Assembly (NCBI GenBank): GCA_951406725.2
Contig: OX597843.1
Coordinates: 7,006,001 to 7,070,000, forward strand
Reading direction: 5' to 3'
Length of the DNA stretch: 64,000 bases
DNA from: Octopus vulgaris
Lineage: Eukaryota
The notes beneath the pieces are model-generated. The model saw only the letters and a program-made list of their open reading frames with translations, was not told the origin of the DNA and made no database searches. Below are positions 1 to 31,249 of the stretch, in pieces (the stretch's first letter is position 1; the number at the start of each line of letters is the position of its first letter). Both the position numbers and the translations under genes were made by a program.

Positions 1-338
1 GTATGGCAGGTTTGGTAGCCTTCAACTAACACTATCTCCTCCGAGACCCTACGGTGCAAGTTGACCAAAATTGAGAGTATGATAGAAGAAGGCTTGCTCT
101 TCCTTCTGTAGAAATTCAAATTGGACCATATTAACATCAAAAAGGTGCTTTTTTTCTATAAAAATCCCTATTCTTTACGATTTTTTCACTGCTGTGTCGC
201 CACTTTTCGGTGTATTTCAACCAGAAAAATGTTCACTTAAAGAGAATAACAAGCTACATAATGCAAAATTTTTACTTTTCAAAAATTCCAATTCTAAAGG
301 GTCGAAACAAACCCGATCAACGCCAGGCTATACTGCTC
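1..338 (+). mobile_element. Non-autonomous Helitron-like repeat (5' end lies outside the window)
   Basis: Same family recurs at 7529-7872 (+) and 42535-42934 (-). The family starts TCTCTATATATAAAGCTGAAG and ends ...GATACTGCTAG with no TIRs. Confidence 0.55.
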
Positions 339-344
339 TACCTT

Positions 345-665
345 CTAGGGGAGTTTAACGCTTGCGTGGGATCTGACCATGATACGTGGCCCATTTGTGT
401 GGACACTTTGGTATTGGCAACATGAATGACAATGGTCAGAGACTACTTGAATTTTACACATACCATAACCTGTGCATCACAAACACATTCTTTGCCAACA
501 AGCCATCCCACAAGGCATCTTGGAGACATCCAAGATCTCACCACTGGCATCAGCTGGATGCTAACATTATACGGAGATCCTTTCTGAATTCTGTGCAACT
601 GACCCGCAGCGCGGATTGTGACACAGATCACTTACTAATTAGAAGTAGGGTGAGGATTCTGCCTA
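345..665 (+). mobile_element. RTE-clade LINE endonuclease fragment
   Basis: LLGEFNACVG, NDNGQRLLEF, LCITNTFF, SWRHPRSHHWHQLD and ADCDTDH are APE endonuclease motifs typical of RTE elements; frameshifted. Confidence 0.85.
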
Positions 666-690
666 TTATATATATATATATATATATATA

Positions 691-1072
691 GGTGCAGGAG
701 TGGCTGTGTGGTAAGTAGCTTGCTTACCAACCACATGGTTCCGGGTTCAGTCCCACTGCGTGGCACCTTGGGCAAGTGTCTTCTACTATAGCCTCGGGCC
801 GACCAAAGCCTTGTGAGTGGATTAGCCTCGGGCCGACCAAAGCCTTGTGAGTGGATTTGATTAACGGAAACTGAAAGAAGCCCGTCGTATATATATATGC
901 GTGTGTGTCTGTGTTTGTTCCCCCAACACCGCTTGGTGTGTTTATGTCCCCGTTACTTAGCGGTTAGGCAAAAGAGACCGATAGAATAAGTACTGGGCTT
1001 ACAAAAGAATAAGTCCCGGGGTCGCGGTGCTCCAGCATGGCCGCAGTCAAATGACTGAAACTAGTAAAAGAA
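691..1072 (+). mobile_element. tRNA-derived SINE, family A (most abundant in window)
   Basis: Head GGAGTGGCTGTGTGGTAAG...GGTTCAGTCCC (A/B boxes), internal (TA/TG)n, tail GGTGCTCCAGCATGGCCGCAGTC; more than 15 copies in the window. Confidence 0.9.
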
Positions 1073-1399
1073 TATATAGGCTGCAGGTAACCTTACGCCT
1101 AAAACAACAAATGTCTGAAGTGTGTCACTTATCGGAATTGAACCCAGAACCTCATTGTAACACAGACTTCTTAACCAAACATCTATTACCCCCATTTATC
1201 ATTCCCTTCCACCCGTAATACCCTTTCTCCATCCCAGCAGCTTAAACTCCAAAGTCGCCAATTCTTCTGGTTAACAGTTCAGCAGGAGTTATCTCCCCTG
1301 CATTCTAATTTTTATTGATTGAATCTCCTGAGATTCTTGTCTGCAGGGCTCAGGTGGCCCCTCGACTGGTCAAAGGGACGTCTATAGCTGATGCCTCAA

Positions 1400-1462
1400 T
1401 GGGAAGTGAACAGTGCATGGGTGAGATACATGCTTGCGTGTGTATAGAGGGGAGAATATCAG
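1400..1462 (-). mobile_element. CR1-like LINE 3' UTR fragment, inverted relative to 1680-2062
   Basis: Reverse complement resembles 1988-2045 (CCTGATCTTCTC...ACTGTTCACTTCCC). Confidence 0.65.
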
Positions 1463-1463
1463 G

Positions 1464-1613
1464 GCACTAGTTAAGAAGAATGGTCCCGGTGCTCGCGCTA
1501 GCTAGTCGTGACTAGTCGATCCTACAACGACTAGCAAAGTAAGGATCGACTAGCGAGCGCCGATGCGCCCCTACGCGTGTGGGCGCACCGGGACCACTGT
1601 TCTTAAGTAGTAC
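1464..1613. other. GC/CpG-rich foldback with nested or pseudoknotted inner stems (identity unknown)
   Basis: Outer arms GCACTAGTTAAGAA..TGGTCCCGGTGC / GCACCGGGACCA..TTCTTAAGTAGTAC. Inner pairs GCTAGTCGT/ACGACTAGC and CTAGTCGATCCT/AGGATCGACTAG. Side hairpin TGCGCCC/GGGCGCA. Confidence 0.7.
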
Positions 1614-1679
1614 GAAAATCAATCTTCTTGGAAACCGTTGAGAAAGGTGCAGCCAGGCGAATCCCCAGCAGCAGGCAAC

Positions 1680-2062
1680 CACCTTACTCTGAAGGCCTTG
1701 CTTTCCGGGGCCTGGACATGTTAAAGCTCCAACATTTGGCAACTGAATTGGTAAACTCCCACAAGATTATCCACAACCTGGGGAAACCTTTTCCAATTCC
1801 GTCTGTCGGACACTCCAGGACATCCTCACAAAATATAAGTCAGAAAACAGCACAGCTCCTTCCATGACTTTCGGAAACATTTTTTCACGCTGAGAGTTGC
1901 TGAAGCATGGAACAAACTGCCGGCATCAGTTGTTGGTTGTCGGAGCAGTGCATCCTTGAAAACTTCCTGAGATTCGCCAACACTACACCTGATCTTCTCT
2001 GTACACAAGCAAGCATCTATCTGACTCATACACTGTTCACTTCCCAGACATTTCTACAAATT
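1680..2062 (+). mobile_element. CR1-like LINE 3' fragment
   Basis: Encodes a degenerate ORF2 C-terminus (FRKHFFTLRVAEAWNKLPASVV); second copy inverted at 6887-7190. Confidence 0.8.
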
Positions 2063-2631
2063 ACCGGAATTCAATGTGAAAAGAATATATCGTTGGGTAA
2101 GTCTACACTAACACATATCGTTTTTATTGAATCGATCTATTGCATTTCAATCTGTTTTAGGATATCTTTTTTCTTCACAAATCTAAATAAACCGAGGGAC
2201 ATATTCAGAATGTTATTTACCTAAATGGACGTAATGGTTAAAATTGACGAAATATGTTAGAACATATGGAATTTTCTCAATAAAACCAAGAAAAAATGAT
2301 GTTTTATAAACATATTCTACCAGTATAGGAAGTTTAAAAGTGTTTGGTTAACTAGAAGATATCCTGTAGCATATACATATTTACGTAGGTATGTATGTAT
2401 ATAATTATATTATATATGTATATATTTATATTATATGTGTGGATGCAAAAGCATTCTGCTTTGAATAGAAGTGAAAGCAAAACTGGGTTGAAAAAAAAAA
2501 ACATTTTGAGAGAGAAAGTTAAAGAATGTTGTGGGCATAATGGTAGAATGTCTAAAAGCGACGAAGGACAGCCCTGAATTTTTCTTCTTTTTTTTAAACT
2601 TAAATAAGTTAATTTTACACAATTTTTTCAT

Positions 2632-2789
2632 GGCGACAGGTGGCTGGGATGTTAGCGCGTCGGACGAAATGCTTAGGTGTACTTCGTCCGACGTGACTGT
2701 CTGGGGGTTCGTTTCCCCGGATAGTCGCTCGGTCTGAGTACATCTAAGTATTTCTTTCGGCGCACTAATTGGCAAACCTGCCGCCTTTT
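2632..2789 (+). ncRNA. Candidate Pol III tRNA/SINE-headed long hairpin RNA, copy 1
   Basis: Starts GGCGACAGG; A-box-like TGGCTGGGATGTTAG; B-box-like GGTTCGTTTCC; ends ACCTGCCGCC-TTTT. The 5' and 3' halves are complementary over the full length, with mismatches mostly G-U on the + strand. TAAATA at about -30. Confidence 0.65.
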
Positions 2790-2837
2790 CAATCAGTTTT
2801 GCATGTGACCTAGTTATTTGACCCGGTTTATCGACCA

Positions 2838-2916
2838 CCTGTGCGCGCCCGCGCGCAGTCGCGTGTCCGCGCTAGCTGGGGCGCGTATGCAAATGAGTTG
2901 GTATGGCACATGCGCG
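2838..2916. promoter_or_regulatory. CpG-rich patch with a perfect octamer downstream of the hairpin gene
   Basis: TGCGCGCCCGCGCGCA foldback and ATGCAAAT at 2887-2894; repeated at 5665-5743. Confidence 0.4.
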
Positions 2917-4636
2917 AAGATAAGATATCTCATAAAGGAATTAATGGGTGTCCATCACTGTTATACGTATGTAATATAATTTTTCTATTGGTTTTAAGTT
3001 GATATTAATTAATACATATTTAACTTTTCATTCTTATTATTTAAGACCGATGATAAAAGTTCTTTCTATTTCTTACTAAAACCTTAAAAAATTGTTTCTA
3101 TCGTTCACACCTTTTATTTGGAATTTATTTCTCTTTCGAATGAAGACAATAAGCATTTTTATACAGTTTGAAGAATTCTATCTATATATAGGGTGGAAGA
3201 AAAGGGTTTCTCTTATCTTCAGAAATGTAAACAAATTCACGTGTGTACTTATACCGAAGGATCGTATTCTACACACTCAGAAAATGTTCTGTTTCCTGAC
3301 AAATACTCATTTTTCTGGACGTTATGAGGAAAGGAAACTGACGCGTGTTAATTAATGAATGTCTGCTTTCCACGGGGATGGTCACATTTGGCCATTAAAC
3401 ACACGCATTGTACATTTGATCTTCACTTCAGCTATATTGTAATTACTTTAATTTCTTTCTTCAAATTCCGTCGACTTTGCCTTTCATCCTTTTGGGGGTC
3501 GGTGGAATCAACAATTGCCCTCCCCACGAATTTCAGGCCTCTGCCTTTAGTAGAAAGGATTCTTAATTTAATTTGTTTTTTAATCATACGTGGGATAAAG
3601 AGTCGTTGAAGGGGTCACGAATGAATTGAAAACCACCGTAACGATAAAAGCTGAAGTGACCAGCAAATGTACGGTGCGTGGGTTTAATTAGCAAAATCTG
3701 GAACTTTTAGAGTTATTCCCCTGCAACCACATTCGATGACTGCTTTCTCCCCCCCCCCCCCGACATATATACGATTCAGCAGAATGCTTTTATACTTATA
3801 TATTATTCAAAGAAATTCCAACTCTGTTTTATTTATATTCTTTATAATATTAATGTAGAATATATAGCATAAGTATTGAGTATCAAATATTAAGGGACTA
3901 GTATACATTCTTGCATATAGGCCCCAGGTATTGACAGGAGTGTTTCAACTATTTATATATATATATGTATCCTATTCCATTCTTTGTTTCTATATCTAGG
4001 GCAGGTACCACTGGTATCATTACGAATAATGTTATCTAATTTCTTTCTAGCCCCCTTCCCCCCCTATATACCCGAACCCTATCGTTCTGATCATAGCCAG
4101 AGAACTGCATGTGGTGTATGAAGTTCTGTATATGTTTTTTCCATTTCATAGGGTTCATATAGTGGGGACACATTGTTCATTATTCTAATTAAGTCTGCTA
4201 TCAATATATTAATTTTCAGGCGTCCTGTCTACATATTCTTTGTAATTGTTTTGGATGTATGGTTCCAGGTTCAGTCCCACTATGTGGCACCTTAGGCGAT
4301 TGTCTTCTTTATTCATTATATTGGCCATAAAGGCATTATATAGAAGGGAAGCTGTGGGCTGGACATAGACAATGTTATATGATGATAAATAAGGGCAATA
4401 AGCGACCCCGCCGATCGCTGCTTACCTGAGAACATTGATCTTTTATAATTTCATTCATGGGGCTTCAAACCTCTTTCATTATTCAAAATGTGGCACTAAG
4501 CCTCTTTATTATTAACTTTCATGCCCGACCAGGCTCCTTGCCTCATTCGAGCACCAGGACGGTGCCAACTCAGGCAAGTGTCTTCTGCTTTACCCACGGG
4601 CTGACGAAAGTCTAGTGAGTAGAAAGAAGTTGATAT

Positions 4637-4910
4637 AGGCACAGGAGTGGTAAGTAGCTTGCTTCCCAACCACATGGCTCCAGGTTCAGTCCCACTGCAT
4701 GGCACCTTGGGCAAGTGTCTTCTAATATAGCCTCAGGCCAACCAAAGCCTTGTGAGTGGATTTAGTAGACGGAAACTGAAAGAAGCCCGTCGTATGTATG
4801 TGTGTTTGTCCCCCCAAACATCACTTGACAACCGATGTTGGTGTGTTTACGTCCCCGTAACTTAGTGGTTCGGCAAAAAAAAAAACCCCGACAGAATAAG
4901 TCCTGGGGTT
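4637..4910 (+). mobile_element. SINE family A, 3' truncated
   Basis: Homologous to 691-1072. Confidence 0.85.
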
Positions 4911-5329
4911 CATCACAACTACACATTCTTTTAATAAAAAATTTAATCAAAATTACGTCAATGTATTTTGTTTTGCAAGGTTCCTGATGGGAAATCGTGT
5001 GTCGAAACAGATATTGTTATATTTTGGGACGGTCAATTTGTTCTTGTTAAATCAACACACGCACTGTACATTCGCTCTTCACTTCAGATTGATTGTAGTT
5101 CTCATTTTATGTCCTTTGCCTGGAAATCTTTCGTCACACAATCTGTAACTCTTTCAGGGGGAGAGTCGCTGAAGAGGTCACAGGGTGTGTGACGAAAGAA
5201 TTATCAGACAATGGTCATAAAATAAGAACAACAATCTGATGTGAAGAACGAATGTATAGCGATTGAGTTTATTTGGCAAAAAGAAATTGTGAGGTGGGGG
5301 CTTCCCGAAATATTACGATTTTATCAAAT

Positions 5330-6562
5330 TTTTTGAGAGAAAAAGTTAAAGAATGTTGTGGGCATAATGGTAGAATGTCTAAAAGCGACGAAGGACAGCC
5401 CTGAATTTTTCTTCTTTTTTTTAAACTTAAATAAGTTAATTTTACACAATTTTTTCATGGCGACAGGTGGCTGGGATGTTAGCGCGTCGGACGAAATGCT
5501 TAGGTGTACTTCGTCCGACGTGACTGTCTGGGGGTTCGTTTCCCCGGATAGTCGCTCGGTCTGAGTACATCTAAGTATTTCTTTCGGCGCACTAATTGGC
5601 AAACCTGCCGCCTTTTCAATCAGTTTTGCATGTGACCTAGTTATTTGACCCGGTTTATCGACCACCTGTGCGCGCCCGCGCGCAGTCGCGTGTCCGCGCT
5701 AGCTGGGGCGCGTATGCAAATGAGTTGGTATGGCACATGCGCGAAGATAAGATATCTCATAAAGGAATTAATGGGTGTCCATCACTGTTATACGTATGTA
5801 ATATAATTTTTCTATTGGTTTTAAGTTGATATTAATTAATACATATTTAACTTTTCATTCTTATTATTTAAGACCGATGATAAAAGTTCTTTCTATTTCT
5901 TACTAAAACCTTAAAAAATTGTTTCTATCGTTCACACCTTTTATTTGGAATTTATTTCTCTTTCGAATGAAGACAATAAGCATTTTTATACAGTTTGAAG
6001 AATTCTATCTATATATAGGGTGGAAGAAAAGGGTTTCTCTTATCTTCAGAAATGTAAACAAATTCACGTGTGTACTTATACCGAAGGATCGTATTCTACA
6101 CACTCAGAAAATGTTCTGTTTCCTGACAAATACTCATTTTTCTGGACGTTATGAGGAAAGGAAACTGACGCGTGTTAATTAATGAATGTCTGCTTTCCAC
6201 GGGGATGGTCACATTTGGCCATTAAACACACGCATTGTACATTTGATCTTCACTTCAGCTATATTGTAATTACTTTAATTTCTTTCTTCAAATTCCGTCG
6301 ACTTTGCCTTCCATCCTTTTGGGGTCGGTGGAATCAACAATTGCCCTCCCCACGAATTTCAGGCCTTTAGTAGAAAGGATTCCTAATTTAATTTGTTTGT
6401 CAAAGTTTTTTAATCATACGTGGGATAAAGAGTCGTTGAAGGGGTCACGAATGAATTGAAAACCACCGTAACGATAGAAGCTGAAGTGACCAGCAAATGT
6501 CTGGTGCGTGGATTTAATTAGCAAAATCTGGAACTTTTAGAGTTATTCCCCTGCAACCACAT
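5330..6562 (+). repeat. Recent ~1.23-kb duplication, copy 2
   Basis: Near-identical to 2503-3732. Confidence 0.95.
5459..5616 (+). ncRNA. Candidate Pol III tRNA/SINE-headed long hairpin RNA, copy 2
   Basis: Identical by eye to 2632-2789. Confidence 0.65.
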
Positions 6563-6568
6563 CCGAAG

Positions 6569-6601
6569 ATTGGTTGTAATGACTAAGAGGAAGTGACGTC
6601 A
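6569..6601 (+). promoter_or_regulatory. CCAAT + CRE/ATF promoter-like module 1
   Basis: ATTGGTTG-N17-TGACGTCA; the same spacing recurs at 8711-8743. Confidence 0.5.
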
Positions 6602-6886
6602 GAGACAGTGCCGAAAACTGAAACAAACATTTTTTTTTTTCATAGGAAGGAAATCTGTTGCTCGCAGAACTTCCTTCTTGGTACGTTACATTTAATTATG
6701 TTTTTAAGTAGAAGTTTCGTTTGTATTGGTGGCAGAGATGGAGCCAGACTGGTGAACAAAGGAAATATATATATTAAGCTGTCAATGGGCAATATGTGGC
6801 CTGACTCGGCCTCCCAACCAAAAGTTATGAGGTAAGACCATTACGTTTTATTGTACATACACATATATATAATAATGAAATCATTA

Positions 6887-7190
6887 TACAGTGCTCAGGT
6901 GCCCCACAACTTGTGAAAAGTGCGTATAAAGCATCTGCAGTGATGCAGAAATGTCTGTGAAGTGAACAGTGTATGAGCCAGATAGATGCTTGCTTGTGTG
7001 TATGGAGGGGAGAAGATCAGGTGTAGTGTTGGCGAATCTCAGGAAGTTTTGAAGGATGCACTGCTCCAACAACTGATGCCGGCAGTTTGTTCCATGCTTC
7101 AGCAACTCTGAGCGTGAAAAAAATGTTTCCGAAAGTCATGGAAGGAGCTGTGCTGTTTTCTGACTTTGTAAACATGTCCACGAGTGCGGA
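6887..7190 (-). mobile_element. CR1-like LINE 3' fragment
   Basis: FFTLRVAEAWNKLPASVV on the minus strand; homologous to 1790-2062. Confidence 0.8.
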
Positions 7191-7528
7191 CATATATGTG
7201 TGTGCATATATATATACAAACATATACACTAATAAGGTGTATGTTTATTTATTTATGTGTGTGTGTGTATAAATAGCTTTAGATAAAATATCTAATTATA
7301 CCAGTTTATCATTGGGATGTTACTCCAAATTCTTCTTAGCAATAATCTCTATGCATTCCTTTTAAATACTAATTTAGGAACCTACAAGTGTGTCTGAATA
7401 TTTACAACTCGTATATTTTGGTGGGTTAAAATACATCTAAACATTAGCCCCGTCGTTCCCACAAGAGCCAGAATAACACCCATTGTAACTATAATAAATT
7501 CATGTGGTTTTTAAGTTTTACAACTTAA

Positions 7529-12529: not shown

Positions 12530-13039
12530 TTACGACACGGGTCGGCCATTCTCGGCAGGCGTGCTCGACCGCGACCCCGCCGCAGAGTGTTGCGGAGAGT
12601 GTGCGCTGGCAGAGATGACGGAGTGCGTCGGACTGGGGGAAGAGGGTGGCTGGGTGGTGAGGAGGGTCGTTGAGGCGACGTCCGAGCTGGTCGACAGCGA
12701 CAGGGGCTGCTGTATGCCCGGCCCCGCCGTACATCTCTGTAGGTTCTGTGATTGCTGTTGCTGTGATGAGGCTGTGGAGGAGCAGCTGGACAGTGGAGAC
12801 GACGACGTGGAGGTGCGGAGGAGGAGGTTGGTGGTGGTGGAAGAGGATGATGAGAGCTGTGGTGCCGTGATCTGTGGTTTGCTTTCGCGACCATCACTGC
12901 TGCCCGTCGTCATTGGTGTCTTGCCACAGACATGATGGTGGTTCTCCCAGTCTTTGTGTTGGCAGAACGAACCGCAATATCGAGCGATGTTGCACCCGCT
13001 GCACGTCTCACTCGCTTTACGTCCGCAGTTCCAACAACT
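12530..13039 (-). CDS. CBFA2T1: CBFA2T/MTG8/ETO (nervy) terminal exon, MYND zinc finger (NHR4)
   Basis: [39 protein letters not shown] is the MTG-family MYND finger. Acceptor ttgcag at 13040-13045, phase 0; TAA at 12532-12530. Confidence 0.95.
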
Positions 13040-14263
13040 CTGCAAAGAATCAAGGGAAAGAAATATTAGAATCTCAATGAATTGGAATTTGGTCCAAAAA
13101 AAAAGCAGATATAACGGCTTTATGCTGAGTGCTTGTTTGTATGTACACCCTGTCGACATCTACACTCAAACAACATGTCCAATTAACTCTACACTCTTTG
13201 AGCTCCCTGTCTAGATATGTTATGTATAGGTTTATGTCTATCACTGTTTGAGTTGCATAATAGTGGTTTTATACTGTGAAATTTGATTTAATTTATATTC
13301 CTAACCACATAGTTCTCGGTTCAATCCCACTGTATGGCACCATAGGCAAGCGTCTTCCATTATAGCCTCTTAGACTGACCAAAAATAGTGTTTAAAAACA
13401 TCTTTATTTTTCTCAAGAAACATTTTACCCAACTTGTATACAGATGCGTTTATATATGGAAGTGTGATAGTGCTATGTGTGTATGTCTGTACATACACAT
13501 ATACATGCATACATGCATACATGCATACTTACATACATATATACACACACACATATATGCATACACTTACATCCATATATGTATGCTGGCAGACATATAT
13601 ACATGCATTTATACACACACACATGTGTGTGTCTGTATATATATACATACATATGCTCACATGCATACATACACACACACACACTTACATCCATATATGT
13701 ATGTATGTATTGACATACGCAATTAGCACTATCACACTTCCATATATAAACGCATTTGTATACAAGTTGGGTAAAATGTTTTTAAAACACAATTTTTAGT
13801 GTCAAGGAAAACTACTCTTATCCCAACTACAAGCGTTTTAATAAGAGACACAAAAGTCTGAGACATTTCAGTTTAAGATGGAATTTAATAAGAAATTATA
13901 TTGTGTTGTCCAGGAAGTTCATGCCGATTTATAGTAGCTTACCTTTCGACTTATTTTAGAACATAGCTGCGTCCCTAAAATGGGATTTGACTCCACCTCC
14001 GTATAGGCTATCTTTTGTCGGGGGGGGGGGGGGATATACTTTTAACGTTCCACTGGCACAAGTGCCGATCAGACGATACTATCATCGGCCACGTCAGCGA
14101 TTCTGATTTGATTTGCCTCGACAGGTCTTATGTATCGAAACGTAGAGTAGATGAAACCATGGCGACTGAAGAAGGGTTTTTTTCCTTGTGTTATTTGTCC
14201 TGTACTCTATTTTTGTTTAAGAAAAATGTCCAGTACTCATATATACAGGGTCAGGCAAAATGA

Positions 14264-14750
14264 TCTGACACATTTGTAGATTAAATAAATGGCATTGTTT
14301 TTCGTTTCTCTTTCAGTTGCTGCCATGAATTGGACTGGTGAGCATCGCACTTTCATTGTGGAAACGTTTATCAAAACAAACGATTCTGTAACTGCAACAC
14401 AAAGAGCGTTCCGTTTGCACTTCAATCTTGGTAGACATGATCCCGTACCAGCTCGAAACACGATCTTCTTATGGGTTACCAACTTCAGAGCTACTGGATC
14501 TGCATTGAAACGAAAATCAACCGGCCGACCTCGCACCGCCAGAACTTAAAGATGCAATTCGTCAAGAAATTACAGCCATTCCAAATGAAATGACCCGCCG
14601 AGTGATTGACAACTCTCGTGAACGCATTCGACAGTGTGTAGACAATAATGGATCCCATTTGACTGATTTAATTTTTGAAATAAAATGGCATTTTATGTTC
14701 TTTTCAAAAATAAAAACACTTTTTTGTTTCTTTACTTCATTTGCCTGTAG
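14264..14750 (+). mobile_element. Internally deleted Tc1/mariner-type DNA transposon
   Basis: TA-CAGGGT terminus. MNWTGEHRTFIVETF...TQRAFRLHF...WVTNFRATGS...GRPRT is a DUF4817-like HTH, joined directly to the transposase C-terminus (QCVDNNGSHL). Confidence 0.8.
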
Positions 14751-14777
14751 AGGTAGGTACGTACATGTTTACATATA

Positions 14778-15830
<1,053 letters not shown>

Positions 15831-16710
15831 CGCACTGATTGTGCCTTTGGGATATATATTCCTCTGGGTCCAGTGTATTCATTGGGTATTGCATTTTTGC
15901 ATGCTGATAGCATAAAGCTTGAAACTTTTCAGCATATATATATTCTTTTCAGCCCACTTGTATATTTTGTCCAGCTCACATTGCAGGCGTTTAGTGTCCT
16001 CAGAGTTCTGTATTGCCTGGGAACTTTGTATCACCTGCATATTTTATTTATATTATATGAGGCCATTATGAACAGTAGTGGTATATATTTTATATATATT
16101 TTTTTTTTTTTCATGACCATCTTTCAGAAAGTCATGAAGCCATTCTCCCAGTTTTTTTTTTTTTTTTTTATCGACTTTATCAAAGGCCTTTGCAAAGTCG
16201 AGATATATCACTTCCACATTTGAGTGGTTGAGCAGCCGTTTCAGCACCCAGTATAGTGTTGTAGGAGCTGAGTTAAACAGCTTCTCCCTGGTCGGAAACC
16301 ATGTTGGGTGTCGGGCAGCAAGTCATTTTCTTCAAGGAAGGTGATATATTTTCCTTCTGACTATTCGTTCCATGACCTTGCCGATGTGTGAGGTCAGAGA
16401 GATAGGTCTGTAGTTCTTGGCCTATATATACCTTATATATATTTACCTTTCCTTCAGTTTTCTATATGTTTGCCAGCTGCAAGGAAGTTTGAAAAGGAAC
16501 TGCAGTGGTCTTGCTAGGACTCTTATACTTTATATATATTTCCGGGAATCCATGGGGCCAGTAGCTGAGTCTGTTTTCATTTCATCTATAGCCTTTATTA
16601 CATCGTCTTCCTTTATATCGATGTAATCTATCGTCGCCGCCTCTGATTTTAAATCTGCAGTGGTAAAGAAGTCAGTATGGATTGGTGATTTGGATATGCC
16701 GATAGGGGTT
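15831..16710 (-). mobile_element. Garbled third copy of the CR1-like LINE RT region
   Basis: Colinear with 22959-23930, but blocks are overwritten by TA/T runs ([18 protein letters not shown] retained). Confidence 0.75.
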
Positions 16711-16719
16711 TAGTGATAT

Positions 16720-18542
<1,823 letters not shown>

Positions 18543-19138
18543 ATTGGGTGGGGGCACCGCGGAGGTTGAAAAAAAGATGATAGAGCGAGACTTGGTCTGG
18601 CAGAGTTAATAGAGGAGAAGTTAGTTAGATAAATAAATAACAACAGATAGGAAAACATGTATGATTGGTCGAGAATTGAAGTGAAAATAAAATAATATAA
18701 GCATTCAAACTGCCAGCTGTGCTCGAGATTATTAGCTGCTAGGTGAATGAAAGAGAGAGCAGTCATATTGTTGCCTTAAGTAAAGGAATTTTTGGACAAG
18801 GCGGAAGTGTATTAAGGGAACAGGCTTCAAAGATGGCGGAGATCGATACGCGAGGGTTGAAAAAAGATGATAGAGCAAGACTTGGTCTGGCAGAGTTGAA
18901 TAGAGGAGTAATTAGATAGGTTATTTATATATATTGATTGATTCAAATTTATATAGATTTTTTATATATTTATTATTCTATTTTATCTTTCACTTAGGCC
19001 CACATCTTAGTTAAAGTTACGATCGTCATTTGGTTTGTTTACATTTGCAATAACTGTTCTCGATATAATAATTTTCCAGATACTCTATCTTCCTGTCTTC
19101 TCTCGAACATAATTAGATAAATAGACGGATTATCCAGC

Positions 19139-19430
19139 ATGGAGATGTGACGAGCTGGATTTATTCGTACGAGCATGGGAGTGCGCCGGCGGAGATAGCC
19201 CTAGCGAGGTGATTGCGGCAGCGGCTCAGATGGAGCGAAAGAGACAGGAATTTGTGCGCTTGTACAGTCGCGCACTTGATGCCATCTTTGAGAACGAGCG
19301 GGGCAAGATTGGAGACGATGAAAGAAGTCACGCCCAGGAGGAGGTTTTGAATGAGAAACCTGCCCGGGAAGTGAAACCCAGGTGCAAGGGCCATGGAGAA
19401 CCCGAGGAGGAAGAGCTCAAGCAGGACCAA
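19139..19430 (+). pseudogene. Unidentified coding fragment, possibly a LINE ORF1 N-terminus
   Basis: GC-rich frame DELDLFVRAWECAGGDSPSEVIAAAAQMERKRQEFVRLYSRALDAIFENE..., fused to the LINE endonuclease sequence that follows. Confidence 0.35.
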
Positions 19431-22080
19431 AGAGTGGAACCAAACAGCGCACCCCAGGTCCTCTTGTCATACTCAAACTCGGTGTGTGACACACTAATTG
19501 TACATATTAGGCAACTTGATGTAGTTGTGTGTGCTACAGATGCCATGTGGGCAAGTTCGAAGACTGCCTTATAAAAATAGAAGAAATTCTAAACACATAG
19601 GTGTGCTTCTTATGGGAGACTTCAATCTGCCCAATGTCAGATGGCCCGAGGGCCTTTCTCTCCCAGGAATGACAAGATGTGAACGAGGTCCCTCATCAAC
19701 ACCCTGTACATGGAGCAGGTAACACACTGGATCTCTGCTTCACAAATGACATGGATCTCATCCATAATGTGAAAGTGACACCGACACTACTCTCGGATCA
19801 CAACATGATAGAGCTGACCATGTACGGGCCAAAGAGAGCACGGACATGCAGCCTACAAGAAACCCTCAAAATCTTTCCAGCTTGAACTACCATAAGGCAA
19901 ACTGGAAACAAATTGAGAAAGAGATCCTCAAACAAAACTTGCCTTGAATGTCTCTCCTCGCCAGACATCGACGTGAAACTTCAACAATTCATGTCTGTAA
20001 TGCAAGCCATATGCTACAAATGTGTCCCAGAGAGAAAGGCCACTGTACACAAGAACAAAATCCCCAGAGAGAGGAAAATTTTAATGAGACGGCGTACGAA
20101 ATTTTCAAATCGCCTAAACAAACAGATTGAAAGCAGTGAAACGTCCCGCCTAAAAATAAAACTGTTGGAAATCGAAAAATGTCTGCAACTCTCCCATGAA
20201 AAAGAAAGAGCAGACAAAGAAGCCTGGGCTATAGAAAACATAAAATCTAACCCCCAGAGCTTTCTACAGGTATGCCAAAGAAACAGCTACAGTGCACTGT
20301 AGAATAGGGCCACTCCTTGAAAAGGATGGCACACTTACAGGAAAACCAATGAGGGTAAGTGAAATACTGAATGAGCAATTCAAGAATGTTTTCACTCCAC
20401 CCCTTGGGCATCACCAATCCAACTGACTTTTTTACCACTGCAGATATAAAATCAGAGGCGGCGACGATAGATTACAACGATGTAACCAAGGCTATAGATG
20501 AAATGAAAACAGACTCAGCTACTGGCCCCGATGGATTCCCGGCAATCCTCCTAAAAGCATGTAAGAGAGTCCTAGCAAGACCACTGCAGTTCCTCTTTCA
20601 GAGCTTCCTTGCAGCTGGCAAACTTCCAGAAAACTGAAGGAAGGTAAAATGATGCCCCATTCATAAAGGAGGTAGCAGAGCGGAAGCCAAGAACTATAGA
20701 CCTATCTCTCTGACCTCACACATCAGCAAGGTCATGGAACGAATAGTCAGAAGGAAGCTGATCACCTTCCTTGAAGAGAATGACTTGCTGCCCGACACCC
20801 AACATGGTTTCCGACCAGGGAGAAGCTGTTTAACTCAGCTCCTACAACACTATGACTGGGTGCTGAAACGGCTGCTCAACCACTCAAATGTGGAAGTGAT
20901 ATATCTCGCCTTTGATAAAGTCGATCATGGAATGATATGTCACAAACTGCGTGATCTCAACATAGTTGGAAAACTGGGAGAATGGCTTCATGACTTTCTG
21001 AAGGATAGAAGTCAGGTGGTAGTAGCCAATGGGGCCACCTCCATTAACACACAAATAGTGAGCGGTGTTCCGCAGGGCACTGTTCTGGGACCACTACTGT
21101 TCATAATGGCCCAGAGAGCCACGATCACAGGCAATACAGAAACCTGAGGACACTAAACACCTGCAATGTGAGCTGGACGAAATATACAAGTGGGCTGAAA
21201 AGAATAGCATGCAGTTCAATGCTGGAAAGTTTCAAGCTTTATACTATCAGCATGCAAAACTGAATGCAATACCCAATGAATACACTGGACCCGGAGGGAT
21301 TGCACAATCAGTGCGTGACCTTGGTATTCACATGAGTGATGACGCGACCTTTCATGTACATGTTGCTAAACTGACAATGAAATGTAGACGGCTGGCTGGA
21401 TGGATTCTTAGAACCTTGAGAACAAGAAACCATGATGGTCCTCTGGAAGACACTTGTCCTAAGCCACTTTGACTATTGCTCTCAGCTATGGTCACCATCC
21501 AGTGTCAAGTTGATCACAGAACTTGAGGCGATCCAACGAAGCTACACAAAGAAGATAGCCTCTATGCAGAATGTAAGCTACTGGGAAAGACTCAAGAGAT
21601 TAAAATTATATTCCCTGGAGCGTAGGCGGGAAAGATATGCCATAATATACATCTGGAAGATCCTGGAGGGAAGTGTCCTGAACTTTGGCATCGAGAGTTA
21701 CGCAAATGCCAGAACTGGGCGCCACTGCGTGGTGCCTAGGACTCCAAACCTGCCATCAAGATGTAGGACAAGATTCTGTGATAGCCTGGGCTTCCGAGGC
21801 CCACAGCTCTTCAATATCCTCCCGAAGAACCTGAGAGACCTGCATGGGGTGGATACAGATGTCTTTAAAATGAAGCTGGATCTCTTCCTGTCAGGTGTCC
21901 CAGATGAACCAACTTCACGGCAGGAGGGGCAGATGAGGGCAGCTGCATCGAACTCTCTCATGCACCAAATAGCAGTTGCTAGAAAGCCTCCATGAAGTGA
22001 AACCAAGTAGCAACACCAAATGGCGGTGCCCCAGCATGGCCACAGCTCATAAACTGAAACTAGAATCAATCAATCAATCA
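19430..22080 (+). mobile_element. CR1-like LINE ORF2 (endonuclease + RT), frameshifted, with (ATCA)n tail
   Basis: MGDFNLP, GNTLDL, SDHN, GPDGFP, YRPISLTS, QHGFR, GVPQGTVLGPLLF, YSLERRRERY. Confidence 0.95.
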
Positions 22081-22123
22081 TATATATTTATATATATTAT
22101 TTATATATATATATATTTTATAT

Positions 22124-22191
<68 letters not shown>

Positions 22192-22236
22192 ATAAATATA
22201 TTATATATATTTTATATTATTTATATATATATTATA
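22081..22236. repeat. AT-only spacer between the inverted LINE copies
   Basis: Degenerate TA repeat. Confidence 0.9.
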
Positions 22237-24005
22237 TGATTGATTGATTGATTCCAGTTTCAGCTTATGAGCTGGGGCACCGCCATTTGGTGTTACTTCA
22301 TGGAGGCTTTCTAGCAACTGCTATTTGGTGCATGAGAGAGTTCGATGCAGCTGCCGTGAGTTGGTTCATCTGGGACACCTGACAGGAAGAGATCCAGCTC
22401 CATTTTAAAGACATCTGTATCCACCCCATGCAGGTCTCTCAGGTTCATCGGGAGGATATTGAAGAGCTGTGGGCCTCGGAAGCCCAGGCTATCACAGAAT
22501 CTTGTCCTACATCTTGATGGCAAGTTTGGAGTCCTAGGCACCACGCAGTGGCACCCCAGTTCTGGCGTTTGCGTAACTCTCGATGCCAAAGTTCAGGACA
22601 CTTCCCTCAGGATCTTCCAGATGTATATTATGGCATATCTTTCCCGCCTACGCTCCAGGGAATATAATTTTAATCTCTTGAGTCTTTCCCAGTAGCTTAC
22701 ATTCTGCATAGAGGCTATCTTCTTCGTGTAGCTTCGTTGGATCGCCTCAAGTTCTGTGATCAACTTGACACTGGATGGTGACCATAGCTGAGAGCAATAG
22801 TCAAAGTGACTTAGGACAAGTGTCTTCCAGAGGACCATCATGGTTTCATGTTCTCTTGTTCTAAAAGAATCCAGCCAGCCAGCCGTCTGCATTTCACTGT
22901 CAGTTTAGCAACATGTACATGAAAGGTCGCGTCATCACTCATGTGAATACCCAGGTCACGCACTGATTGTGCCTCTGGGATTGCAATCCCTCCGGGTCCA
23001 GTGTATTCCTTGGGTATTCAGTTTTGCATGCTGATAGTATAAAGCTTGAAACTTTTCAGCATTGAACTGCATGCTATTCGTTTCAGCCACTTGTATATTT
23101 CGTCCAGCTCATATTGCAGGTGCCTAGTGTCTTCAGGGTTCTGTATTGCCTGTGCATAACTTGTGATCGTGGCTCTCCGCGTGGCTGAGGGCATGTCTGA
23201 GAGGGCCATTATGAACAGTAGTGGTCCCAAAACAGTGCCCTGTGGAACACCGCTCACTATTTGCGTGCTAATGGAAGTGGCCCCATTGGCTACTACCACC
23301 TGACTTCTATTCTTCAGAAAGTCGTGAAGCCGTTTTCCAACTATGCCAAGATCACGCAGTTTGTGATATCATTCCATGATCGACTTTATCGAAGGCCTTT
23401 GCGAAGTCGAGATATATCACTTCCGTGGTTGAGCAGTTGTTTCAGCACCCAGTCATAGTGCTGCAGGAGCTGAGTTAAGCAGCTTCTTCCTGGTCGGAAA
23501 CCATGTTGGGTGTCAGGCAGCAAGTCATTTTCTTCAAGGAAGGTGATTAGTTTCCTTCTGACTATTCGTTCCATGACCTTGCTGATGTGTGAGGTCAGAG
23601 AGATAGGTCTGTAGTTCTTGGCCTCCGCTCTGCTACCTCCTTTATGAATAGGGCATATTTTACCTTCCTTCAGTTTTCTTGGAAGTTTGCCAGCTGCAAG
23701 GAAGCTCTGAAAGAGGAACTGCAGTGGTCTTGCTAAGACTCTCTTACATACTTTTAGGAGGATTGCCGGGAATCCATCGGGGCCAATAGCTGAGTCTATT
23801 TTCATTTCATCTATAGCCTTTATTACATCGTCTTCCTTTATATCGATGTAATTTAACGTCGCCGCCTCTGATTCTATATCTGCAGTGGTAAAAAAGTCAG
23901 TTGGATTGCTGATTTGGAAATGCCCAAGGGGTGGAGTGAAAACACTCTTGAATTGTTCATTCAGTATTTCACTTACCCTCATTGGTTTTCCTGTGAGTGT
24001 GCAAT
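22237..24005 (-). mobile_element. CR1-like LINE, 5' truncated, inverted copy of ~20330-22080
   Basis: Same RT motifs on the minus strand; (TGAT)n tail at 22237-22252. Confidence 0.95.
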
Positions 24006-24035
24006 ATATATATATTGGTTTTCCTGTGAGTGTGC

Positions 24036-24747
<712 letters not shown>

Positions 24748-24829
24748 ACTCACTTAACAATAAAATCATTGTTACAGTTCACTTGTTCAAAATCAGCGTC
24801 CGAGAAGACATGCACTTGACTTAGTATAA

Positions 24830-27800
24830 GTATCAAGTGCAAGACAATCTAGATTCTCGGCGACAACTATTGATAGTCGTTCATTCATTCTTTACTACTA
24901 CCATCATCATCATCGTCGAGTCCGTCGTCGTCCTCATCATCAGTTGTATTCGGGAAGGATGACTTTCACTTTGCAAATACTGACAGGACACATTGCGTGT
25001 CTATGAATATATATATATATATATATATATATACTACAGTAGCATGTACATATAGGGGTTAGCCATATTGAAATGGCAAAATACACACGTGTGTATGTAT
25101 ATATATGTATATATATATATACATCTGTCTGTATGTATGTATTAAATGTATTATCAGGGTGCGATATACACACACACACAAACACACACACACACACATC
25201 TTTACATTTCACACACACACTATCTGAATTTGATGACTACACACACATGGTCAGTTGGGTATAGTACCATATATATATATAGTATCCCGGAAATGACAAT
25301 ACGCGCGCATCACTGATTTGAAAAATTTCCATTATTTTTCGTTAATTTTGCTTTGTCCCCATATTTAGCATGACGGATAAAAATGCTATTTTGTCACGTT
25401 ACATTTCATGGTGTTTGGAGTGATCAGTTGAAAGTCATAGTAAATTATGCCACCAGTCTCATCTGCGATAACAATGAAGCCTCAGACATTTAATACGGAA
25501 GAAATTGAAATCACAGAAAATAAAAAAGGAAGTAGTGGAACTAGAGTCAAAGAGTACCAATGTCTTCTGTGTTTGGCAACAGGCCTCTAGCGACATGCCA
25601 TACAAGACTGAGGACCCTAAAGAAAAGAAAAAACTATTTCTGCGACCACGCTCCCCCCTAATATCTTTAAGGTACTTTTTTATTTCAACTCCCCAGACCA
25701 TAACCCCACTGGTGCAATATTCTATTCTTTCGTAAGGGCTCTGAGTTGAACGACATAAACCAACGTCTGAAAGCTTGTAACAATAGCTACAAGTATAGAC
25801 ATAGCTATGGCAACAATTCAACAACGACAACTTAAGGAGCAACAATTACGGTCCACAAATGTAATGTACAAATATTCTGAAGTCTTCAGTCTAGGTCATG
25901 GTGAATAGCGTTAAAGTACAATTGACGAAGGGGTTTTATTTCGGCGAAAAAAATTATAATTTAATGAGTTATATGCAGAGTCAGCACTTATCTGTATCGA
26001 TTTATATTTGGTAAGTGGAGTCAGTTAAAATGGGATGCAGGTAAGACTATGTTTGCGTAATGTTAGACGAAACAAAATACCTGTGCATTCAATCACAAAG
26101 GACAGATATATATATATATTGAGATAGTAGCAAAGTGTGTATATGTAGATTATATTCGAGAGGGTGCCGAAAAGTTCTGGCATTTGGGTAGAAAAGATAT
26201 ATATACAGGAGGGTCATGTTTATATATATATATTTATATATATACATATATATATATTCTCCTCTATAGATTCACACACTACATTGTAGTGTGTCCTGTG
26301 CTGTTTTCCTAAGCCTATATAAGGACTAGTGGAAGATTTGGGCCTGCACTGTGAGGCCATTTCCTTGATGCCCTTGAAAATATGTCTACTTTCCAGCACC
26401 TTGAATGGCTTTCAGATAATGTACTTCGATGACTCTCTTATGAATGATTCGTCATGAGCACTACTAAGTTGAATCACATTCGCACACACAAGCACGCGCA
26501 AAAAAAAACACAAACATACAACTGCCACAACTCGTAATATGTTTTTTTTCATGCGTCAACTCTATACTGTATATACACATGTAATATATGTATAACTTTA
26601 AAAAGCTCCGTGCACACAAACATAATAACATACCGATATATTTTGCTTATAGAGAGCTGACCTTTTCACTTTCAGGCTGCGTTTGTACCAATCTGTGTTG
26701 GTCTTAATCAAGCTAGAGAAAACGGCGTTATCAAGGTTACATTCAAATGGATGCATTATCAAACCAAACTATTCAGAAACCTATCCGATGGCCATTATAC
26801 ATACCACTTTAATGGCATCACTCGTAGTCACGTAACAATAAATTCTAGCATCAATATGTACAGATGAAAGTATGCAGATTCATTTCTATAGAAACAATCC
26901 TCAGAAACTACGACCTACATATACAAGATGCGTCTAAGGTATTTTCTCTTTACGCCTATCGCCGTTTAAATGGTGTATACTCAGATTATACCGCAGTCTT
27001 AAAATATGGTATATACTTCCAAGTGACAGTGGCTAAATTGCTTGACAAATAAAGCAGTAAATTTATCTGGAATATGTTTAATATATTAGAATCCGTACAC
27101 CAAGCAAAAAACAATTATATGTGTGTGTGTGTGTGTCTGCATGTATGTTTATGGGCTATGTACCTGTACGTAAGAATCTAGTGTAGAATATGTACATTAA
27201 AATGAGTAGCATGCAAGAACAATGCAAATAATTATTACTTATTACTTTGGATTATTATTTAATTATTATTGCATGATAGCATTCCAACGTCTTTTTGTTC
27301 AGAGTATTGCACGACTCTGTTTTTGAGGAAGAAATCCTTCGTTTGTCTTTTTTTATCGGAGCAAAGTTCCTCTTTTGCTGAATTTCTAGTGTTCAAACAT
27401 GATGTAATCGCTTGTTATCAGAAGAATATAAACAAAGTGTAGCTTTAACGGCATTGAGCATATATACGATCTATATATTTCAGGGTACTTCGTCTCGATA
27501 CTCTCACACATGTTTCTGAATACACAATCCCCACCCATATATAATGTCTATGGCCTCACCGACCAAGTCAGTATTTGTATTTACTCTTGGACTTCCATAA
27601 AAGTTCCATCTTCAATACTTCTCCAATGCTTGATAACGATAATGCTTTCTCCACCATATTCTAGCATAGGCAGGATCACCTCTTCCCACTCAAGGTCTTT
27701 TTTCTTCTGGGATGAACATTAATACACCAGATTCACATTAAACAAAGTTATTATACTGAAATAAATCACGTAGAAAAATGCTGTTGAGCAATGCAATAGA

Positions 27801-28811
27801 ACATCTTATCTGGAAAAATAACTAAAGAAAAATATTATTGAACATTTATGGTTATTTTCCTAGAAAATAAACTGATAACAGTACTGGAACACAATACTAG
27901 CTTGACTGGACTCTAAAGATTAGATAGCGAAACACTGCAAACCCCTTGTACAACTGAATGTATATTGGTTCTCGTGCCTAAGAAAATTTAACCCTCCAAT
28001 AAACTTCCAAAGGCGCGCCTAACCCATCTCTATGACATAAGACATTGGTTGTTGGCTAATAATCTTCCATAATATTTTGAGAAAGATTCCCCTTTGGGAG
28101 TGTATATATATGATATATATATATCAAAGAGTTCAGAGGAGTGTCGATAGCGGCAGGCTATTTCTCTAATTGAAGTTATCTAACAATTAATGTGAAGTTT
28201 TTATTATCTTACAATAGACAATCAGCCGTATGCATTCATGCAAGCAAGATCTGAAATGATTCTTCAATGAAAACAGGCATTGACCACCTTTTTGGATTAA
28301 CTTATAAAGAAACTGGTTTTCTAAGTATAGTATTGATGGTTCCGGATATACTACGGTTGATATAACAACACTGATGCATGTGTGGTTATTTTCATTGACA
28401 TTAAATATTATAAAATCTGGCAATTTTCTTATATGGATTTCCCTCGTTATTTTCTGTTCATATTCTTTTGTGCGTGTTTGTCAAAGAACATAAAGCTTAC
28501 TATGCAGTATCGCCACATTTGCTCCGGTCTTGAATAGGAACATAGGATCTCGTATACAAGCATTTTGAGAGTTAGAGTCCCTTGATAGATGCCAATTCGG
28601 GCTTTCTTAACCATTTCGGAATGGTTAAAGGTGTCTTCGTGGACCATGAAGTCGTTGTTCTAAAAGGAACGCTGGTCTCCTTGCACAACGCTGTATATCG
28701 ACGTTGATTTCCTTACGGACTCCCTTCCCCACAGCTGTCACGGGGAGGAAGAAGGGGTAGAAACAAACACAGGTGCAGAAGTGTGACCATGGACGCCAAC
28801 TCCGCCGCCAT
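24830..28811 (-). pseudogene. Frameshifted PA-domain RING E3 ligase gene (goliath/RNF128/RNF130-like); pseudogene or error-laden sequence
   Basis: Signal-peptide-like MAAELASMVTLLHLCLFLPLL from ATG 28811; donor gtaagc at 28500-28495. PA-like ENNHTC...LIQKGGQCLFSLK...NAYG/LIVY at 28210-28420. RING-end-like RHAMCPV..CK plus an acidic tail at 24850-25002. Confidence 0.5.
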
Positions 28812-29499
28812 CGACACACGAAAAAATTATGCATTAAAATGGAATGAAAAGTAATGATGTTAAATTTATTTTAGTAAATCGTGAGCGCGCTCTTTTAGAC
28901 GGGCTCGTGCAAGATCACATTAATCAAGATACCCGGTTAGTGTGGTTAAACTGCACCGCAAAATAAAAGTGGGAGTAGTTAGGAATCTAAATCGAAGGGG
29001 ACATACGACACTCACACAACTACAGTTTTATATATATAGATATAGTCGAACCATCTTATTAGCATTCTGTTTCTAATGATATATTACCAGTCCGAAATGT
29101 ATGTTTTAATGAAAAGCGTACAAGATGACTTTCTGTGAATGTAGCATAACAGCTAAGGTATAGTGTCAGGGGTAGGCTCAGCAACAGATTCACTTAAATA
29201 GACCATATTCCATTGTAGATAGAATATGTGAATCCAGAAATTGACATTCCTTAATGATCTAGTCTTACTATGTTCCAAACACATCAAATATTACTAAAGT
29301 TACTACAATTACTGAAGGTGTTGGCCCTATGATACGATAAAATAGTCGGTAGAAATATGCTTTAAAAATGATAATAAACAGTAGGAGAATTCAAAGCTGA
29401 TAGTCTGAAGAACAACATGACTTTTCTGGTTGCAAATAAATATAGAGTACTATTTGACTAAATCGGGAAAACTATCATAGCTGGTGATTTGTAATAAAC

Positions 29500-30100
29500 C
29501 ATCATCATCATTGTTCGACCGTGGTCAAAACAATGGAATTTACCATGCTACACCAAACTTCACGGTCCATCATGGCATTACGGAGGTCCTGTTGCTGGAT
29601 GCCTGTATCCCTGGAGATTACATCAGGGTAGGAGAGTGTGCGCCCTCTGGTATTGCGAGTAGATGGCTTCCAGAGGAGAAGAGTAGAGATTACCTCTTTT
29701 TCAGCTCTACAACAATGTCCAGCAAGATATGACACAGGTGGTAGTTTCCCATATATTTGCATTTTGGTTGGATGGCGCTTCCACGAGAGATTTTGAGCTC
29801 TCATAAGGAGGCGAGTGTAGGTTCCATCCAACCGCCTCTCAAGCTTCTTTGATAACGTCCAGGTTTCTGAGCCATATAGTAGAATTGGTTCGACTGTGGC
29901 TTTGAAGATTTCAAGTTTGAAGTCTCTACTTAGATTTGATGACCAGATCTTATGCATGTCATTACAGGCTGACCAGGCCATACCCTTTCTAGTTAGAAAA
30001 TCTTTTCCAGATGATGATATGTATGACCCAAGATATTAGTAATCAGAAACCATATTTAAGGGCGCATTGTTGAGAGTATGGATGATTAATTCACTGTTGG
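29500..30100 (-). mobile_element. RTE-clade LINE 3' fragment
   Basis: FKATVEPILLYGSETWTL...LDGTYTRLL...LAGHC; (GAT)n tail. Confidence 0.88.
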
Positions 30101-30359
30101 ACAGGCATAATACACACAATAGGCTTCTTTCAGTTGCTGTGAACTAAATCTACCTGGAGGCCTAAGGTGTCACACAGTGGGACTGAACCCGGAACCATGT
30201 GGTTGGGAAGCAAGCTACACAGCCACTCCTGTGCCTATGTTCAATTAAAAAAAAAAATCTTCAAAGCAGTGCTCCAGCATGGCTGCAGTCAAGTGACTGA
30301 AACAAGTAAAAGTACACAAACTGAAACATCGCAAATATTGTCAAGGGGAGATAACTCAC

Positions 30360-30622
30360 TGTAACTTGGATAGTGTCGATCCCTATCTCGCTCCCTGTCA
30401 CGCTCGGCTCGTTCCCTTTCTATCCTTTCCTGTTCCAACCGTTCACGCTCTCGCAGTTCCCTCGACAGACTGATGTCTCCGAGGCGGATAGGTCCACCAG
30501 AGTTCAGGTTCACCATGCCGTTTGGACTGATACGGTTGTTGCCCAGGGGGCTCATGCTTGGGTGGCGCTTTGCCGAGTGGAGCGTATCCATGTGACTGTC
30601 GCTGCCGTTCTCCTTCGTTGGT
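30360..30622 (-). CDS. CBFA2T1: CBFA2T exon (linker with RE/RD-rich stretch)
   Basis: ttccag acceptor and gtgagt donor; phase 2 in matches the previous exon, phase 1 out. PTKENGSDSHMDTLHSAKRHPSMSP resembles the MTG TKENG..AKR motif. Confidence 0.85.
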
Positions 30623-30678
30623 CTGGAAAGAGAGATTTTAATTTGGAATAAAATGAAGGATAAAGAATGTTGATATTC

Positions 30679-30797
30679 ACTGCTAATTATGCAAACCGAT
30701 GAGGGAGCCCCTAGGCAGTCCTATAAACCATCCGAGTTGTGAATGGATCTTAGAAGACTACCTAGAGGCTCCCTCATCGGTTTATATAAGTAGCAGT
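30679..30797 (-). other. Intronic ~45-bp-arm imperfect hairpin (pre-miRNA-like or MITE)
   Basis: ACTGCTA..AAACCGATGAGGGAGCCCCTAGGCAGTC pairs with GACTACCTAGAGGCTCCCTCATCGGTTT..TAGCAGT. Confidence 0.55.
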
Positions 30798-30828
30798 TAA
30801 GTACAGGTGTTGGTTACACAATGAAGGT

Positions 30829-31215: not shown

Positions 31216-31249
31216 AAAGGGTCAGTGATTGCCTGAGAAAGTAGCTTAC

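Follow-up and report, generated by a model that had tools for sequence, protein, structure and literature searches.

A 150-base self-folding stretch joining two opposite-facing LINE pieces, most likely an inert copying scar or a small transposon

Positions 1464-1613 of the window (the whole stretch of 64,000 nucleotides that was analysed) are a real 150-base self-folding stretch which joins two opposite-facing scraps of one retrotransposon. Most likely, the foldback was left behind by self-primed copying and is inert, or is a very small transposon, rather than a working RNA switch; either way it would be of a known kind, a by-product at the DNA level or a small transposon. A preliminary description of this DNA had offered a structured RNA, a terminal hairpin of a parvovirus-like or foldback element, and a template-switch product as explanations. 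Of these, a template-switch product or a foldback element gives the best fit; the structured RNA is without support, no Rfam family having reached its gathering score.

The foldback and its surroundings

The outer stem, previously described as an imperfect duplex of about 29 bp, is formed by a left arm at 1464-1492 and a right arm at 1585-1613 (both plus strand), which share 25 Watson-Crick pairs over 29 positions; the four mismatches all fall in the outer 17 bp, and the inner 12 bp are perfect. The side hairpin reported at 1564-1587 is likewise there (1564-1570 with 1581-1587, 7 bp) and extends to 1560-1591 (plus strand, 10 of 11 pairs), where it competes by strand exchange with the inner end of the outer stem. 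The predicted fold energy is -78.9 kcal/mol for the plus strand and -78.7 kcal/mol for the minus strand. For the whole element the fold has a z-score of -8.1, with none of 200 shuffles as stable on either strand, and the interior alone (1493-1584, arms removed) has a z-score of -3.2 (3 of 500 shuffles). The fold is beyond chance. The description of the stretch as a CpG-dense island is correct (GC 56%, 15 CpG, observed/expected 1.28, against window averages of 37.6% GC and 0.63), but the island is not unique in the window: 150-mers as CpG-dense lie at about 2.8, 5.6, 12.5, 40.8, and 41.8 kb.

Both flanks are, as had been proposed, inverted pieces of one LINE family, which we take to be CR1-like from its C-terminal motifs. 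The left flank is an inverted 3' UTR piece (1344-1463, minus strand) that starts at the ORF2 stop-codon region and is identical to another copy at 6.9-7.2 kb at 98 of 119 aligned bases. To the right lies a degenerate piece of the ORF2 C-terminus (1614-1836, plus strand) with frameshifts, in which 16 of 112 informative positions differ in 1631-1777, followed by a younger-looking piece with the ORF2 end and 3' UTR (1837-2058, plus strand; 208 of 215 aligned bases as in the 6.9-7.2 kb copy) that is without its last ~60 nt and tail. The right LINE is 5'-truncated, its homology beginning at about 1614-1625, and the right arm of the foldback adjoins the truncation point. On each side the foldback arm stops exactly where LINE homology starts, the two LINE pieces being oppositely oriented, and this is the most informative fact on the foldback. 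The inverted UTR pieces differ from each other at 6 of 50 positions, and the left one is more distant from the right one than the 6.9-kb copy is. The 11 nt at 1326-1336 (plus strand), in a micro-palindrome immediately past the left piece, are an exact copy of LINE 1965-1975; as background, 13 of 944 60-nt tiles share an 11-mer.

An assembly or library artefact, that is, a fold-back chimera, is highly improbable. The foldback is single-copy, palindromic, and located beside a recent duplication, as an artefact might be, but its arms differ at 4 of 29 and the inverted flanks at 6 of 50 positions, which is too many for a read-level fold-back, and blastn gave no phage or plasmid match beyond one each (E 2 and 5).

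Several further observations concern the LINE pieces. Within the right-hand LINE, identity to the 6.9-7.2 kb copy jumps from about 75% to 97% at 1809-1836; this switch sits at a 6-nt insertion, within about 25 nt of the truncation of the 6.9-7.2 kb copy, as might result from a local gene conversion or from a chimeric insertion in register. An AT-rich direct repeat (10 nt + 7 nt) lies outside the LINE-foldback-LINE composite at 1309-1325 and 2121-2133, and it is a possible but unconvincing target site duplication (TSD) of the whole composite. ADAR-type hyper-editing of the flanks was rejected, as the left piece has 7 transitions and 14 transversions. A model of a SINE inside the LINE was also rejected, as the ORF2 continuation was not found left of the composite (P 0.72). 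A Penelope-like inverted pLTR, as characterized in an excerpt of PMC8557442, was discarded because the flanking LINE, judging by its motifs, is not of that type.

The LINE frame at 1839-1967 matched 11 proteins among 16 candidates, the top two being from Octopus vulgaris with 91% identity, which marks the window as octopus genomic DNA. From ~12.5 kb onward (12530-31570), minus-strand exons with MYND and TAFH domains probably belong to a homologue of MTG8/ETO/nervy, judging by domain content. The foldback lies ~11 kb downstream of the last coding piece of this gene, surrounded by SINEs, scraps of LINEs, and small foldbacks. LINEs of other families, decayed but with reverse-transcriptase domains, were seen at 19886-24237 and 40509-42509, the former made up of inverted pieces with long TA runs in between.

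A recent 1.25-kb duplication (2504-3745 and 5331-6575, 97.8% identical) includes a CpG patch and a near-perfect long hairpin of ~155 nt at 2633-2788 (plus strand), duplicated at 5460-5615 (z -12, 0 of 200 shuffles). This hairpin opens with GGCG, closes with a complementary segment and then TTTT, contains motifs that resemble A and B boxes by eye, includes a 15-mer that recurs in SINE pieces near 9.24 kb and 9.78 kb, and is followed ~100 nt downstream by an octamer-like motif; its Rfam matches were only to miRNAs and all sub-threshold. It resembles a Pol III gene for a hairpin RNA, or a relative of a SINE, and is possibly more interesting than the foldback at 1464-1613. In a run that assigned the latter a z-score of -7.6, stronger, unrelated foldbacks were found at 2633-2788 (-13.4), 5034-5289 (-13.7), and 30676-30800 (-10.3). 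Strong foldbacks are not rare in the window; what is distinctive in 1464-1613 is its repeated inner motif and its position. Small MITE-like foldbacks lie at 30676-30800 (outer arm AT-rich, inner stem GC-rich), 58579-58706 (TTAA-bounded and also 128 bp), 5034-5289, and 3387-3695; alignment revealed no kinship of 1464-1613 with those at 30.7 or 58.6 kb.

The repeated inner motif and its predicted folds

All stems listed in the preliminary description were found where it had placed them. The motif CTAGTCG occurs at 1502 and 1512 and its complement CGACTAG at 1528 and 1547; 25 of 5000 shuffles contained one 7-mer four times. The four copies, two in each orientation, lie in a large inner arm (1495-1560, plus strand) that can form either nested stems (1495-1508 with 1547-1560, 13 of 14 pairs, and 1512-1518 with 1528-1534, 7 bp) or an alternative stem of 12 bp (1512-1523 with 1542-1553). 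The 12-bp stem crosses a 9-bp pairing of 1501-1509 with 1527-1535, and together they make a formal H-type pseudoknot (1501-1553, plus strand) with loops of 2, 3, and 6 nt; two crossing stems, each of at least 7 bp, were found in the interior of 32 of 5000 shuffles.

A 2-nt loop can cross 7 bp of stem. The claimed pseudoknot core does have its two crossing stems, but loop 1 is too short for the 12 bp of stem 2, and the full pseudoknot is sterically doubtful because this 2-nt loop must cross the 12-bp stem inside a closed multiloop. With sterics ignored, a rough pseudoknot energy of -80 to -86 kcal/mol compares with -78.9 kcal/mol for the nested fold, so the pseudoknot cannot be dismissed on stacking alone. 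Trimming the 12-bp stem to 7 bp costs 10.1 kcal/mol and brings the pseudoknot to about -70 to -76 kcal/mol. In the energy model, an H-type pseudoknot is formally possible and would be competitive if sterics are ignored.

The bistability that had been proposed is predicted for one molecule. The plus-strand RNA has two nested folds, at -78.9 and -77.5 kcal/mol, which are 1.4 kcal/mol apart and appeared in a ratio of 4151:843 (83:17) when 5000 structures were sampled. In contrast, a single nested branched fold made up 4777 of 5000 samples of the minus-strand RNA, and 4930 and 4869 of 5000 samples of the two DNA strands. Two-state folding thus holds in the model for the plus-strand RNA only.

These predictions bear on two of the alternatives. 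The two plus-strand folds are what a cis-acting RNA acting in place would offer, whether as a ribozyme, a frameshift pseudoknot, or a bistable switch in the downstream transcript of the neighbouring gene. That gene, however, lies on the minus strand, which has a single fold state; the foldback is embedded in decayed repeats, and there is no intact ORF. Pattern searches found no hammerhead core, twister, pistol, or slippery motif, and a strict HDV descriptor gave 0 matches on both strands (a relaxed one, with 31 and 122 matches, was discarded as too loose), in agreement with the earlier statement that no hammerhead or HDV core is present. We regard such an RNA as extremely improbable.

The single branched, two-arm fold of the single-stranded DNA of both strands is in turn what one would expect if the terminal hairpin of a rolling-hairpin replicon, parvovirus-like or other, had been endogenised, and a T-shaped hairpin of 161 nt is reported for a shrimp densovirus (PMC11357303). 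Nevertheless, the arms are lopsided with a large internal loop, both flanks are LINE, and the 70 open frames of at least 45 aa across 1-7500 contain no viral domain, having returned 7 weak, sub-threshold, and unrelated matches. Octopus and cephalopods are also unmentioned in the available portion of that review. With only its shape in favour, the viral terminal hairpin suggested in the preliminary description is very unlikely.

Possible origins of the foldback

Searches for relatives of the foldback were largely negative. No second copy is present in the 64-kb window, and the comparison with Rfam that had been recommended yielded 0 families at gathering score over the window. In permissive Rfam runs, only Rota_CRE (20.3 against 40 bits) and a ciliate snoRNA (18.6 against 75 bits) appeared over the foldback, and both were dismissed as chance. 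The inner stem had 0 matches in prokaryotic genome scans; the outer 12-bp arms matched 2 Tsukamurella loci, but these differ in the interior and outer arms and were also attributed to chance. The foldback's 34-aa open frame had 0 matches among predicted proteins (a weak negative for copies), and the degenerate ORF2 frame had no candidate among predicted proteins of 44-142 aa only (also a weak negative). The matches listed for 11-mers of the foldback in paper full texts include no paper on cephalopods or similar repeats, a limited literature search found no description of it, and the excerpt of PMC10886601 holds nothing relevant. A k-mer search of supplements to PMC9699675, PMC9115989, PMC5786205, PMC4824008, and PMC9587614 gave no match in the files covered; copies could be present in file 2 from PMC9699675, in file 1 from PMC4824008, and, from PMC9115989, in files 5, 7, and 8 and the transcriptome archives.

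We tentatively favour the reading of the foldback as a single-locus junction scar of snap-back or template-switch synthesis without RNA function, because one event explains the exact boundaries and because precedent exists (PMC11371274, PMC2666801, both in excerpt). The event would start with the insertion of a 5'-truncated LINE (CR1-like, judging by its motifs) or with later repair at its junction. The growing minus strand would run off its template near 1614, fold back, and prime itself several times, producing the side hairpin and next the repeated 7-8-mer in both orientations, before recopying its own first 29 nt as the left arm. Synthesis would then go on to copy the LINE 3' end in antisense and finally join flanking DNA. 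The product would be a branched palindrome, functionless as RNA, whose alternative pairings are a by-product of copying one short motif four times. The anatomy, the adjacency to both LINE pieces, and the internal copy structure are observed; the order of events, the enzyme (presumably either a repair polymerase or the reverse transcriptase of the LINE), where the CpG-rich seed came from, and the absence of function are what we infer.

In favour of such a scar, the foldback sits at the 5' truncation point of a LINE and is followed by antisense sequence of the same LINE (the inverted 3' UTR at 1344-1463), with a second templated scrap of that LINE at 1326. When the foldback is read in minus-strand order, 59 of its 150 nt are exact copies (at least 6 nt) of sequence made earlier, which was seen in 0 of 500 shuffles, and the arm-to-arm mismatch of 4 in 29 is similar to that between the inverted UTR pieces. 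Against it, the excess of copied sequence is inverted and not direct (P 0.56 for the direct part), which any hairpin would give. The CpG-rich seed of about 40-60 nt is without a clear template, its longest match to either LINE copy being 8 nt, and the inner stems are nearly perfect against the 14-18% divergence of the adjacent LINE pieces, which suggests younger or constrained sequence. Neither the seed nor the preservation of the inner stems is explained well by a scar. A scar also leaves a TTAA pair with RR..YY ends as a coincidence, and, with the left UTR piece more distant from the right one than the copy at 6.9 kb is, a later conversion must be assumed.

Two local templates were considered. 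The right arm at 1577-1609 has a weak likeness to the ORF2 segment expected just upstream, a possible template. tblastn carried the ORF2 match into 1577 without composition correction but showed no extension with it, and an ungapped back-translated ORF2 profile had its best score at 1577, with 26 places in the window scoring as high. Profiles of 6 and 11 codons, picked after seeing the match, gave P 0.005-0.021, and 13 codons gave P 0.10-0.20; an anchored gapped test failed (70 and 89 of 400 shuffles). The second is the CpG patch 1.3 kb away. The 10-mer that had been noted as shared with 2868-2877 is indeed present, but alone it is at chance level (150 of 2000 shuffles). In a longer ungapped comparison, 1591-1552 of the foldback (minus strand) matches 2838-2877 (plus strand) weakly at 29 of 40 positions, the best of 355 window tiles (3-15 of 500 shuffles), and on this similarity the patch is a possible local template.

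The seed and the inner-stem preservation would both be explained if the core were instead a transposon. The preliminary description saw no TSD, and a boundary scan at 1464/1613 agrees, but the statement is too strong: TTAA at 1471-1474 and 1603-1606 is a candidate TSD. It encloses a core of 128 bp (1475-1602) with GA..TC (RR..YY) ends and an 18-bp inverted repeat matched at 16 of 18 positions, which would be a non-autonomous MITE moved in trans by a Kolobok-type, TTAA-specific transposase, an unlikely reading that still merits weight. The arrangement TTAA|GA..TC|TTAA with its inverted repeat fits the definition of Kolobok by TTAA TSDs and RR..YY ends, KolobokP having TIRs of 11-18 bp (PMC9587614, in excerpt), and TTAA MITEs of ~100 bp are known from corals (excerpt of PMC2872659). 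The core is better preserved than its flanks, and the unrelated ~125-bp foldbacks at 58579-58706 and 30676-30800 show comparable elements in the window, in which five TTAA-bounded inverted repeats were counted. A TTAA in one arm of a palindrome, however, forces a TTAA in the other; as both belong to the stem, the pair is not independent evidence of a TSD. Moreover, 81 of the 326 TTAA in the window have RR next, and beyond each TTAA, 5 of the 7 bases that remain before the LINE boundary are still paired. The MITE would thus have to land, by luck, in an 18-bp palindrome at a pre-existing head-to-head LINE junction, with the repeated motif as subterminal binding sites or slippage, a history we likewise consider unlikely. 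The element is single-copy in the window, and neither the window nor the four KolobokP supplements of PMC9587614 provided a match or a partner transposase with the same ends. For a Crypton, no TIR/TTAA definition was found in the available part of PMC3212892, and this candidate was dropped. If the foldback is a MITE, it adds one more family to the poorly curated cephalopod repeat set.

A third reading accounts for boundaries, composition, and preservation together, and is rather less probable again: a full-length retrocopy of an undescribed structured RNA of ~150 nt, closed by its terminal stem and captured when the reverse transcriptase of the LINE jumped templates, or a SINE-like 5' head with the LINE 3' UTR at 1463-1344 (minus strand) as its tail. 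The two junctions fall at the paired ends, as expected for a copy of a whole RNA, the sequence is CpG-rich and foreign to its flanks, and the minus-strand RNA has one dominant fold. On that strand 3 of 7 non-canonical positions are G-U, against 1 of 7 on the plus strand, but this bias is not significant. Capture of non-coding RNA at 5' junctions has been described (excerpt of PMC11371274), and mollusc SINEs with CR1-derived tails exist (excerpt of PMC4758252). Nevertheless, there is no positive evidence for either version. The putative RNA belongs to no Rfam family and has no U-run end; the putative head shows no Pol III B box on the plus or minus strand, even with one mismatch allowed, and no A box on the minus strand, is present once in 64 kb where other SINEs have many copies, and had no k-mer match in the SINE supplements searched. 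In its most specific form, which is a shade more unlikely still, the 150-mer would be a LINE-captured, full-length and undescribed cephalopod small RNA or mobile replicon end, with its 29-bp stem and four fold-switching motif copies. On this view the captured 150-mer may be a relative of the CpG patch that neighbours the Pol III-like hairpin genes, and may head a non-tRNA SINE with a CR1-type tail. We would like to note that only this captured RNA or new SINE head, if true, would surprise specialists, as it would point to an undescribed structured octopus RNA.

Comparison with known systems

The foldback shares features with several described systems. As in tRNA-derived SINEs, a LINE-derived tail (1463-1344, minus strand) directly follows it; in contrast to them, its head lacks Pol III A and B boxes, and no tRNA gene was found. 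A pseudoknot-capable, GC-rich sequence 5' of a LINE recalls the HDV-like ribozymes at the 5' ends of R1, R2, R4, RTE, Ingi as well as LOA elements (PMC5786205, in excerpt), but the foldback has neither HDV topology nor core and adjoins the ORF2 C-terminus instead of a 5' UTR. The T- or Y-shaped terminal hairpins of parvoviruses (PMC11357303, in excerpt) are similar in size and also have a long basal stem with two branches; the foldback differs from them in its asymmetric arms, its LINE flanks, and the lack of viral coding sequence (NS1/VP) nearby.

Non-autonomous Kolobok elements (PMC9587614, in excerpt) and coral CMITEs (PMC2872659, in excerpt) resemble the foldback in having TTAA on both sides, a short imperfect TIR, and a length of ~100-130 bp, the former also in their RR..YY ends. 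In contrast to both, the stem of the foldback runs past the TTAA, and no second copy or partner transposase was seen; its TIR also does not start with CCC, as CMITE TIRs do.

For the junction scar that we tentatively favour, the counterparts are snap-back junctions of R2, where, ahead of 5' joining, antisense copying of the cDNA is primed from its own 3' end, and zebrafish ZfL2-2, about 40% of whose copies have extra 5' junction nucleotides attributed to template jumps (PMC11371274 and PMC2666801, respectively, each in excerpt). The foldback departs from these in its length of 150 nt, its several nested rounds, its CpG-rich seed without a proven template, and, around the whole composite, a TSD candidate limited to the AT-rich 10-mer at 1309/2121. 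If the foldback is indeed such a scar, it neatly preserves how snap-back synthesis proceeded in series at a LINE junction in an invertebrate, and it warns that pairings of a bistable or pseudoknot-like type come about without selection. What it has in common with the R2 and ZfL2-2 junctions is inverted, self-templated sequence at the truncated 5' end of a LINE, followed by the antisense element.
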